A program made the position numbers and the translations under genes. This document shows positions 43,914 through 52,613 of a DNA stretch of 64,000 nt, piece after piece; position 1 is the first letter of the stretch; each line of letters starts with the position of its first letter. The stretch lies in IMG/VR virus record IMGVR_UViG_3300046463_000164. One strand, given 5' to 3'. Source of the stretch: a virus. The notes under the pieces are model-generated. The model had not been told where the DNA came from. It ran no database searches and was given only the letters and a program-made list of their open reading frames with translations.

Positions 43914-43935
43914 TTGTAACTATGTAAATTAAAAC

Positions 43936-43965
43936 AAAGAAAAGGGCGCCAACTTCAGCGCCCTG
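43936..43965 (-). terminator. Terminator after the tRNA-like gene
   Basis: AGGGCGC-TGAAGTTG-GCGCCCT-TTTCTTT on the minus strand. Confidence 0.7.
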
Positions 43966-43984: not shown

Positions 43985-44074
43985 TGGTGGAGGCGACGGG
44001 ACTTTAACCCGCACCCGGTCGTCCAAACGGACCGTGCATCATCACGTGGGTTGGCCCACCAATACTACGCCCCC
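43985..44074 (-). tRNA. Atypical tRNA-like RNA with alanine acceptor identity (G3-U70, A73, encoded CCA) and no canonical anticodon arm
   Basis: GGGGGCG...GCGGG-TTAAAGT-CCCGT-CGCCTCC-ACCA; 90 nt. Confidence 0.7.
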
Positions 44075-44081
44075 AATGACC

Positions 44082-44465
44082 TTACAGCGCTTTCCAAAGC
44101 ATAGCGATGAGAGAGCACAGACCATCCAAGAAGGATATCAGGCCGCTCTTGAAAGCATCGCCTTGAGCCGGGAAGTGCTTCTGGAACACTTCGCAGACTT
44201 TGAGCAGCAGATACGCCCCAGCAAATATCAGCAGATACGTCTTAATACTTCCGCCACTGTCCGAGTCGTCAGAACTGCTCGAATGAGCACTTGAACCGCT
44301 AGGATAATCGAAACTACCCGGCTCCAACCCTCGCTGGCGATAGAGCATGTCAATCTCAACCGCCTTCCAGTTATCGGTATTGTTGCTTGCGAGGATTTCT
44401 TGTTCGCGGCGCTTGATTTCGATTTGTTCTGGACGGCTCAACTTTCCATTGACGATCATGCTCAT
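44082..44465 (-). CDS. Membrane-associated hypothetical protein
   Basis: C-terminal hydrophobic helices; behind early promoter. Confidence 0.6.
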   Translation of the reverse strand: MSMIVNGKLSRPEQIEIKRREQEILASNNTDNWKAVEIDMLYRQRGLEPGSFDYPSGSSAHSSSSDDSDSGGSIKTYLLIFAGAYLLLKVCEVFQKHFPAQGDAFKSGLISFLDGLCSLIAMLWKAL

Positions 44466-44521: not shown

Positions 44522-44550
44522 ATTATAACCGATAACACATACCCAGTAAA
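44522..44550 (-). promoter_or_regulatory. Early promoter
   Basis: TTTACT-N17-TATAAT. Confidence 0.75.
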
Positions 44551-44575
44551 GAGGTTTATATGGAATTCATAAAAT

Positions 44576-44604
44576 AAAAAATGGGAGCCGAAGCTCCCAT
44601 TTTT
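44576..44604. terminator. Terminator
   Basis: AAAAATGGGAGC-CGAA-GCTCCCATTTTT. Confidence 0.85.
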
Positions 44605-45429: not shown

Positions 45430-45488
45430 GACTTTACTTATTACGTAAAACCTAATATCCCAAACCGCCATCAGCAGGTCAGTTGTTC

Positions 45489-45495
45489 CTAAATA
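45489..45495 (+). promoter_or_regulatory. Late promoter CTAAATA for the endonuclease
   Basis: Motif 30 nt upstream of ATG 45525. Confidence 0.5.
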
Positions 45496-45524
45496 GATAC
45501 AACACAAATCTATTTGGAGCAAGC

Positions 45525-46325
45525 ATGGACAGAACGCCTTACACTTATCTGATCGGTTGGTCGCATTTGAATCTTTGGTATTATGGGGTTAAGTACGCCG
45601 TGGGTTGTCACCCAGATCAGCTTTGGGTATCATATTTCACTAGCTCAAAATATGTTGCTGAAACCAGGGCTGAACACGGAGAACCTGACATTGTTGAAAT
45701 CCGTAAAGTATTTGATGATACCAAGTCAGCTAGATATTGGGAGAATACGGTTCTAAGGCGTTTGAAGGTAGTATATGACGATAAGTGGCTAAACAAGACA
45801 GACAATAAATCCATATCGCCTGAATGCTGTAGTCATCAAAAATGTCTTGGTCTTAAACGTTCCGAAGAATCAAGAGCTAAGATGAGAAAATCTTGGGAGA
45901 CTAGAGACCCAATTTCTGAAGATACGAGAGAGAAGTTAAGAGTTGCTGCTACATCTAAGCGCCATTCAGAAGAATCAAAAAAGAAAATTAGTGAAGGCAA
46001 TAAAGGCAAAACTCTAACCGAAGAACATAAAGATAAGGTTAGACAAGCTAGAATTGGGTCAAAGGCTAGTGATGAGACCAGAATAAAGATGTCTGAATCG
46101 GCAACAGGTAGAAAGATGTCAGCCGAATCTATTGAGAAAACTGCTGCTGCCCATAGAGGAAAATCTAAACCTAGCGAGAAAATCAAAGATCATGCTAGAA
46201 GGCTAGGTCAAATCAAAATGACGTGCCCTCATTGCAATAAAGAAGGATCAATGGCCAACATGAAACGTTGGCACTTCGATAATTGTAAATCTAAACCTTC
46301 TGATCTATTTGAACTGTTCGAATAA
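45525..46325 (+). mobile_element. Free-standing GIY-YIG-like homing endonuclease with NUMOD3 repeats
   Basis: PYTYLI...YYGV, YFTSS, WE, LN catalytic domain; repeated HSEESKKKIS-type motifs; CPHC; AT-richer and inverted relative to neighbours. Confidence 0.85.
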
Positions 46326-50166: not shown

Positions 50167-50257
50167 GTGGTCCTCAGTTGGAATAAAAAGAAGGGGAGAC
50201 AGCGCCGGGTCAACGCTGAATCCCCTATGAATGGCCGCCTAACGAAGCTGCCGCAAA

Positions 50258-50533
50258 TTATTTGATCGCTCGCAAAATCTTCTTAACTGCCCGGGCTTCC
50301 GGTCCCTTCCAATGACCCAGATTCATGAGCAGATACGTGATATTCGTTTTGATACCCTCGATCCCAAACTCTTGATAGGCGCGCATCATACCGTGAGCAT
50401 AGGACTTGGCGTAATGATCAACCCACGAGTTTCTCATGGCCAACCTCAACGCCTCTATTTGTGCCTCAGTGAAGCCCGATTCCCCGAGAGCCTTACTGAG
50501 CCAAAGCGGCATTTCGATACCTTCCATTTCCAA
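50258..50533 (-). CDS. Hypothetical protein
   Basis: YAKSY...YLL.NL.HWKG.EAR.VK small phage family. Confidence 0.6.
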   Translation of the reverse strand: MEMEGIEMPLWLSKALGESGFTEAQIEALRLAMRNSWVDHYAKSYAHGMMRAYQEFGIEGIKTNITYLLMNLGHWKGPEARAVKKILRAIK

Positions 50534-51453: not shown

Positions 51454-52613
51454 AATACGCTACAGCGCGTAATAACGGTTTGCTTAATACCATGGAACTC
51501 GTCATGCTTCTTGACGGTTCCTCGCAGATTCAGAACCTTACCGGGCTCACCCACATTCCGGCTTGCGAACCAGGTGTAGTGATTACCAAACTCGTCCACC
51601 AAACCGAAGATGTAAGTTGCGCCCCAGGTGCCTTCAGACACGCTTCTACGGGTGATCTTAAGCCCTTTGATGCTTAGCCGTTCTCCTACTACGCCGACCC
51701 AGTCACCAGCCTTGCCTGAGGCTGCTACGCGCTTCTCTTCACCATCCTTCATCCATACATTAACCGCCGCAGCAACGTAGCCGTACAACTTATGGCGGAT
51801 GACTTCCGATTGCAGGGCCAACTGGACGTTGTGGATGAAGTCGTTGCCGGTCGCATCCTTAGCAAGCATATGCTCCTTGAAGCCTTTCAATTCATCTTCC
51901 AAGTCTTGGACAAGAACATCCTTGTACAACTCTTCACGACGCTTACGCGACGGATTGATGTCGTGGGAAGTCGGTTCAATACCCCGCTCTTCAGCTTTCG
52001 CCTTAGAGACAAACCCATGCTTCTTGATCGAAACATAGGCGTCCATAATCGCTTCGTCAAGATAGTACGCCCACGCGGCACGCGGCACATCCATGTCCCA
52101 ACCTTCGTCGTCGTTGACCGACCCCAGGTTGTTCATGTAGGCGATCAGGTCTTCAACGTTGACCGTAGGCAAGAAGTCCTTCAGGCAAGTCGCGCCGACC
52201 ATCATTTGGCGACCATCCTCGTGCTGGATCAAGTAAGCCGTTTTCTTCAGGCGCTTGGTCTGGCAGTGATCGCAGAACATCGGGCAAGTACGCAGACGCG
52301 GGATGGGTGCGTGATTGGCGGTTGTGAAGACAAAGTTCTGACCCTTGACGTCGCTGGGCTGGATCTTGGAGTGAATCGACCAACCGCCCAAGCGAGGGAC
52401 TTCACCTTGAATCTCTACGCGAACCGCCTCAACCTGTATCGACTTGAGAACCGGATTACCAAACTGATCCTCGCCATCCGGCACGCGACGCGTATCCAAG
52501 AACCTTTCGGTGACTTGGTACTTGATCTCAGGCAACTCCCAGCGGACCGCTTTTTTGTTGAACTTGGCGATCTTTGCTTCAAACTCCGGGAGGCGATACG
52601 CGAGAATTTTCAT
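51450..52613 (-). CDS. Hypothetical protein with Zn motif and C-terminal OB-fold
   Basis: CDHC..R, VG.TCL.DF; VG.VGER, WFAS, GTVKKH.EF.G.KQTVITR. Confidence 0.7.
   Translation of the reverse strand: MKILAYRLPEFEAKIAKFNKKAVRWELPEIKYQVTERFLDTRRVPDGEDQFGNPVLKSIQVEAVRVEIQGEVPRLGGWSIHSKIQPSDVKGQNFVFTTANHAPIPRLRTCPMFCDHCQTKRLKKTAYLIQHEDGRQMMVGATCLKDFLPTVNVEDLIAYMNNLGSVNDDEGWDMDVPRAAWAYYLDEAIMDAYVSIKKHGFVSKAKAEERGIEPTSHDINPSRKRREELYKDVLVQDLEDELKGFKEHMLAKDATGNDFIHNVQLALQSEVIRHKLYGYVAAAVNVWMKDGEEKRVAASGKAGDWVGVVGERLSIKGLKITRRSVSEGTWGATYIFGLVDEFGNHYTWFASRNVGEPGKVLNLRGTVKKHDEFHGIKQTVITRCSVF

Follow-up and report, generated by a model that had tools for sequence, protein, structure and literature searches.

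A conserved alanine-type tRNA-like RNA, probably non-decoding, in a protein-gene cassette of a large phage

Organisation of the locus

The window analyzed here is a 64,000-nt stretch of DNA from a large phage (IMG/VR virus record IMGVR_UViG_3300046463_000164). The element of interest is a 90-nt tRNA-like RNA gene on the minus strand (43985..44074), whose neighbours encode an ATP-dependent ligase, a thymidylate-synthase-like enzyme, a dNMP kinase and a MazG/dUTPase-like protein. T4-like tail-tube genes, a UvsX-like recombinase, a DnaB-like helicase and sugar-modification enzymes are found elsewhere in the window. Megablast and blastn searches against GenBank phages returned no close relative. 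The sole GenBank match was a terminator hairpin at 44564-44600, which over 37 nt shares 97% identity with an unannotated terminator lying between genes of Vibrio Thalassavirus (T5-like) phages; the likeness probably reflects convergence or a terminator module common to both. A NUMOD3 homing-endonuclease-like ORF (45483-46325, plus strand), some 1.4 kb away from the element, is also present in locus L049 and missing in the otherwise identical L050, and is thus a mobile-gene polymorphism.

As predicted from sequence, the element belongs to a cassette in the order promoter, 127-aa ORF, 7 nt, tRNA-like RNA and terminator, all on the minus strand. The putative sigma-70-type promoter, TTTACT-N17-TATAAT (44522..44550; 10/12 matches), follows an upstream terminator at 44604..44577. 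The 127-aa ORF (44082..44465) contains one predicted membrane helix, matches no known family and is predicted to be co-transcribed with the RNA. Between its stop codon and G1 of the RNA lies a 7-nt spacer (44075..44081) that would be the RNase P leader. Beyond the RNA, a predicted intrinsic terminator with a 9-bp stem and a T tract (43935..43964) is kept in all relatives, so that the terminator noted in the preliminary description is borne out; at 43964..43943, it begins about 20 nt past the 3′ end of the RNA. With its own promoter, ORF, tRNA-like RNA and terminator, the cassette would thus be closed. The encoded CCA of the element is followed by AGUUU, and (A)GUUU likewise lies 3′ of the genuine tRNA genes of a relative.

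The sequence as originally described is exact (window 44074..43985, minus strand), and the gene assignment draws on this sequence, a tRNA-model match, a three-copy alignment, covariation and the element's own covariance model. Neither ARAGORN at default settings, which called no tRNA or tmRNA, nor Rfam at gathering scores, which called no family, reported anything within the 64-kb window. The Rfam tRNA model RF00005 nevertheless matched the element over the full model length at 26.5 bits, below its gathering score of 29, aligning confidently along the acceptor stem and T arm but poorly over the D and anticodon regions; the E-value of 0.0016 applies to 351 nt and becomes about 0.3 when scaled to the whole window. 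Rfam tmRNA-clan models gave no match at E up to 10, and the best match within the clan was tRNA. The predicted fold of the window copy is not more stable than that of shuffled sequences (z-score −0.47), so a single sequence offers no proof of a structured RNA.

Fold and conservation of the RNA

We aligned the three distinct copies of the element, that of the window and those of loci L047 and L062, which was done without difficulty. The consensus is a cloverleaf with an acceptor stem (1-7/80-86), a hairpin (10-39), a short stem (41-44/56-59) and a T arm (63-67/75-79), and RNAalifold recovered the same helices independently. The predicted minimum-energy folds of the L047 and L062 copies differ in part from this consensus. 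All 27 modelled pairs are kept in each of the three copies, and 81/81 pair cells are standard. When partners were slid, 45-53% of cells paired as against 100% for the real partners, a control which on three sequences is not a probability.

The acceptor stem comprises seven pairs, kept in 3/3 copies, between its 5′ strand (44068..44074; positions 1-7) and a 3′ strand that continues into the discriminator A73 and the encoded CCA (43985..43995; sequence and three-copy alignment). Thus the acceptor features first noted from the single sequence, a 7-bp stem (1-7/66-72 by tRNA position) with G3:U70, A73 and CCA, are borne out. The one change in this stem, at pair 5:68, converts G-C to G-U in L062. 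In place of a D arm there is a long irregular hairpin (44036..44065; positions 10-39) with an inner helix at 16-20/25-29, an invariant CCAA loop and a bulged G30. Its pairs 17:28, 18:27 and 19:26 are compensatory, and two further one-sided changes keep pairing. At the junction the pairing is ambiguous and could be either 10-11/38-39 or 7-9/37-39. A separate middle hairpin, GTG/CAC, had been proposed from the window copy; its third pair is broken in two of the three copies, and its bases belong to the hairpin of positions 10-39.

The next helix occupies the place of the anticodon arm (44016..44034; positions 41-59) and has a conserved 4-bp stem and, in the window, a 9-nt loop. Pair 44:56 changes from U-A to C-G. 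The preliminary description was correct that no 5-bp/7-nt decoding arm exists, but went too far in describing the anticodon arm as absent, as the window copy has 5 bp and a 9-nt loop, the relatives have 4 bp and a 10-nt loop, and one pair is compensatory. The T arm (43996..44012) has 5 bp and the 7-nt loop UUAAAGU, keeps G53-C61, U54, U55 and A58, and shows a C-G to U-A exchange at pair 50:64 in L062. The reported lack of TTC in this loop also holds, C56 being replaced by A in the window copy and by G in L047. The same UUAAAGU loop with A56 occurs in genuine-looking phage tRNAs from IMG/VR (L002, L004, L006, L007, L008 and L009), several of them in tRNA clusters, and one IMG/VR pattern scan returned only ordinary phage tRNAs with this T loop. 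From the tRNAs of these six loci, a T loop without C56 appears to be a recurring phage tRNA trait.

In total, both partners have changed in five pairs, of which three belong to the inner hairpin and one each to the short stem and the T stem, and none is broken in the three copies, which is the result of the covariation check among related phages that had been suggested earlier. L047 and L062 illustrate the pattern most clearly. Their flanking DNA is 63-80% identical whereas the element is 91% identical, and of the eight differences within it six fall in compensated pairs, one is the G-C to G-U change and one is position 56 of the T loop. This pattern is what selection produces and, at the level of sequence, indicates an RNA fold under purifying selection, the opposite of a decaying pseudogene. 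Because the fold was kept by compensatory mutations in three diverged lineages, it points to a selected tRNA mimic and not a decayed tRNA. Invariant in the three copies are G1-C72, G2-C71, G3:U70, G4-C69, A73, CCA, the CCAA tetraloop and the junction bases, together with the T-loop core (G53-C61, U54, U55 and A58). Three distinct copies put the invariance of G3:U70 to a weak test only, and the conservation could look stronger than it is if the element moved between lineages recently.

The anticodon-like arm exists as two alleles. L047 and L062, although they are the carriers furthest apart, have the same 16-nt arm letter for letter, whereas the arm of the window phage differs at 12/17 positions even though its flanks are closest to L047. 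The loops, 9 nt in the window and 10 nt in the relatives, are unrelated in sequence. These observations suggest that the function of the loop depends on its sequence and that the module was recently replaced in the window phage, as judged from the alignment. A search for antisense targets of the loop, covering the window and the carriers' loci, gave no significant complementary site. In the window copy a UUGG/CCAA loop-loop pairing is possible; it is absent from L047 and L062.

Several positions that serve the tRNA elbow are variable. Position 8 is U, C and C across the three copies, and the D-loop motif corresponding to G18G19 is GG in the window copy and AG in both L047 and L062. Relaxed ARAGORN reported a different "anticodon" for each copy. 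The view that the RNA does not decode is therefore supported at the sequence level by the lack of a conserved anticodon loop, U8 and G18G19, by the missing C56 and by the inconsistent ARAGORN anticodons.

Distribution among related phages

Homologous loci were obtained via the flanking proteins. An identical element is present at five JGI contig loci assigned to the same phage, L049-L053, two of these contigs being 146 and 173 kb in length, and a 151-kb Logan contig also encodes the same ORF. Two diverged copies lie at the same site: L047:1765-1853, preceded by an ORF with 82% amino-acid identity, and L062:1841-1929, where the upstream ORF is 43-48% identical and an upstream 241-aa protein is 57-58% identical. 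The distance from the ORF stop to G1 is 7 nt in the window and in L047 and 11 nt in L062. Logan assemblies of L047-type phages (L044, L045, L046 and L048) break at element position 30 or 34, both of which differ between alleles; these breaks suggest co-occurring variants or recombinants within single samples.

Homologues of the 127-aa ORF are found in all relatives, element carriers and non-carriers alike, and a distinctive C-terminal motif, HFPAQGDAF, is common to the carriers. At least eight related lineages lack the element (L010, L056/57, L059/60, the P0009 contig, L063, L064-66, L068/69 and L058), and in these the stop codon is separated from the terminator by 60-85 nt. Since the stop codon leads directly to the terminator in these lineages, the element is a clean indel right after the stop codon, and its absence from most relatives indicates that it is dispensable. 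The carriers are mutual nearest relatives in the 241-aa protein, for which the simplest history is that the element was gained once, long ago, and then retained. In L054/L055 an unrelated insert of about 150 nt without an ORF occupies the same spot between stop and terminator (L054:1779-1965), for which neither a match in Rfam nor a significant fold was obtained. Insertions into the 3′ UTR may thus be frequent at this site.

A normal tRNA at this site in relatives, of which the window copy would be a decayed version, was looked for and was not found among the relatives examined, which carry the aberrant fold with its compensatory changes or else lack the RNA altogether. No further copy of the element was recovered by IMG/VR pattern scans, a protein-based IMG/VR scan or a GTDB genome scan; one of the pattern scans yielded mostly chance matches and short tmRNA-like genes. 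A metagenome scan with the thymidylate-synthase-like protein returned distant relatives only, all without the element.

A syntenic IMG/VR relative with a complete genome of 170,684 bp has 24 ARAGORN-called tRNA genes in a cluster about 85-90 kb from the locus. Two RNAs in the tRNA cluster of this relative, G001 (IMGVR_UViG_3300046501_000132), lie at 52283-52355 and 50254-50346. These are, respectively, a well-formed tRNA with the anticodon CUA (amber-suppressor type), called tRNA-Pyl by ARAGORN, and a 93-nt tRNA-like RNA with two consecutive T-arm-like hairpins, which scores 19.3 bits with the tRNA model and part of which ARAGORN calls tRNA-Ser(cga).

Nature and possible roles of the RNA

The element shares with tRNA-Ala and with phage tRNA genes a cloverleaf with 2-, 1- and 3-nt linkers, a 7-bp acceptor stem and a 5-bp T stem. 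It further resembles tRNA-Ala in G53-C61, U54, U55 and A58, in the alanine identity set and in CCA followed by (A)GUUU. Unlike tRNA-Ala, it has no 7-nt anticodon loop, no conserved G18G19 and no C56, carries C8 in two copies and places an arm of about 11 bp with a tetraloop where the D arm should be; unlike phage tRNA genes, it sits in a protein-gene cassette, about 90 kb from the tRNA cluster. The element's own covariance model, built from the three-copy alignment, scores ordinary phage tRNAs at 20-35 bits. Together with the linker pattern, the tRNA-model match and the CCA + (A)GUUU flank, this capacity to find phage tRNAs argues for tRNA ancestry. T4 stable RNAs C and D are also tRNA-like and not decoding, and are larger and located inside a tRNA cluster. 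The tRNA-Other of Bacillus cereus (PMC3399842) is likewise tRNA-like, not for decoding and of regulatory or unknown role.

We propose, at roughly even confidence, that the element is a tRNA-derived RNA which is excised, probably alanylated and non-decoding, which mimics tRNA and acts in trans, and which represents a new small family. Transcription would start at the cassette's own promoter, placing the RNA behind the membrane-protein ORF of 127 aa. By analogy with the real tRNA genes of the phage, RNase P would then cut at G1 and the 3′ trailer would be trimmed to the encoded CCA. The freed 90-nt RNA would probably be charged by the host AlaRS. Minihelices with G3:U70 suffice for alanylation, and the relevant identity rules have been reviewed (PMC9976931). 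The AlaRS-substrate elements G3:U70, G2-C71, G4-C69 and A73 are all present, with a free CCA end that depends on the inferred processing. Because the acceptor/T minihelix is kept with the full alanine identity set, AlaRS probably charges the RNA. The anticodon-like loop would serve as the contact surface for a partner, a role made likely by its being conserved, sequence-specific and swappable, and with such a contact the RNA would most likely act in trans by binding or titrating a tRNA-binding factor.

A more specific form of this proposal, which we offer tentatively and regard as rather unlikely as it stands, is an alanine-chargeable decoy in which the loop arm is a specificity module and which neutralizes a tRNA-directed host factor. 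Candidate targets would include a tRNA-targeting defence nuclease or modifier, or the trans-translation machinery. Among the 30 larger ORFs of the window that were scanned, we found neither a partner nor a tRNA-acting enzyme; Pfam or PHROGs gave no aminoacyl-transferase, tRNA repair enzyme, synthetase or SmpB-like protein among these 30.

The alternative that survives best, although we consider it improbable, is that the element is a cis-acting processing signal. A cloverleaf 7-11 nt past the stop codon would recruit RNase P, set the 3′ end of the ORF mRNA, detach the terminator hairpin and tune stability, with the released RNA as a by-product. This fits the location of the element, which in all three lineages is always directly between the stop of the same ORF and the terminator, and fits the relatives, which differ exactly by a 3′ UTR insert and, in L054/L055, have another insert in the same spot. 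A comparable tRNA-like cis element is mascRNA at the MALAT1 3′ end. The t-elements of plant mitochondria are cloverleaves of non-canonical form that guide RNase P to cut at the 3′ ends of mRNAs (PMC1920247), and the element likewise combines such a cloverleaf, immediately 3′ of a longer transcript, with the character of a likely RNase P substrate. However, t-elements and mascRNA need no aminoacylation identity, whereas the element conserves the alanine set, CCA and a sequence-specific loop. For processing, an acceptor/T minihelix shape would suffice, and this explanation leaves unaccounted for the invariant alanine set with its CCA, the selected hairpin with its CCAA loop and the 16-nt arm that is identical despite 20-37% flank divergence. 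Common descent would equally account for the position that the copies share.

We regard as doubtful, and more so than processing in cis, the suggestion that the element is a mini-tmRNA consisting of the tRNA-like domain (TLD) only, as in mycobacteriophage DS6A, which would bind SmpB and inhibit trans-translation. DS6A encodes little beyond the tRNA-like domain of tmRNA, and its RNA, when expressed in E. coli, has an inhibitory effect on tmRNA that may come from titration of SmpB (PMC4131195, PMC11915505). Thus a phage precedent exists, and the DS6A RNA (JN698994 28478-28560) is in the same size class (about 83-90 nt), phage-encoded and without a coding or decoding part, with the same Ala-type ends (G3:U70 and A73) and a T arm. 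It begins 11 nt past an ORF stop, as compared with 7-11 nt for the element, and is the best foreign match of the element's model at 39.1 bits. However, this model gives other short tmRNA-like phage RNAs no higher scores than ordinary tRNAs, and the Rfam tmRNA model, which matches DS6A (34.7 bits) and IMG/VR L132 (28.8 bits), does not match the element. DS6A has the tmRNA D-loop motif, a P2a helix, a canonical T loop and no encoded CCA, whereas the element is a four-helix cloverleaf with a covarying hairpin at the D position, a helix at the anticodon position and a T loop without C56. The D-loop GG is not conserved, the covariation there being that of a hairpin, and a conserved helix fills the anticodon-arm position that on tmRNA is occupied by SmpB (PMC4131195). 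As family membership, the mini-tmRNA assignment of the preliminary description does not stand, given that the best match within the Rfam clan is tRNA and none is tmRNA, whereas the tmRNA model does recognize the RNA of DS6A, a true TLD-only tmRNA. By analogy, the element perhaps works like a TLD-only tmRNA without being a member of that family.

Separately, we observed short genes (84-99 nt) with tmRNA-type 5′ and 3′ ends and no coding part on many viral contigs of IMG/VR: L146:5751-5835, L081, L073, L132:1873-1959, L152:3486-3583, L076:2704-2792, L079:1893-1991, L128, L103, L126, L105 and L159. L132 adjoins a tRNA and is the locus that scores 28.8 bits with the Rfam tmRNA model. Matches in L113, L095 and L086 are parts of two-piece permuted tmRNAs (RF04321, 108.9 bits). 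The tmRNA database papers name DS6A only, and CDS-less tmRNAs of the DS6A type may be widespread in phages.

Decay offers a third and very improbable explanation, in which the element is a tRNA pseudogene or the neutral remnant of a translocated tRNA gene. It would account for scores below the thresholds of both tRNA finders (ARAGORN and Rfam), for the absence from most relatives and for the distance from the tRNA cluster, but not for five compensatory pairs with none broken in three copies, for an element more conserved than its flanks and with a conserved loop arm, or for a site at which no relative has a normal tRNA. Least probable of all, and barely credible, is a working tRNA with an expanded anticodon loop that delivers alanine at a special codon or causes frameshifting: the 9-nt loop on a 5-bp stem, with an alternative 7-nt reading that has a U33-like base and UUG, would allow it, but loop length and sequence vary between carriers with no shared anticodon, the elbow bases U8, G18G19 and C56 are missing or not constant, a D arm cannot be formed from the 11-bp hairpin and the ARAGORN readings disagree.

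Phage tRNA genes have been linked to evasion of tRNA-targeting defences (PMC10264068), and the sole described phage tmRNA with only a tRNA-like domain inhibits ribosome rescue (PMC4131195). The element is a conserved RNA that escapes standard tRNA finders and Rfam, and at 90 nt, with natural carrier and non-carrier relatives, it is a small and tractable object. If the reading as a decoy is true, an arms race would have left its trace in the loop swap of the window phage. A separate conserved family that combines the chargeable half of tRNA-Ala with a swappable loop would widen the range of RNA mimics that phages deploy against host translation or immunity.
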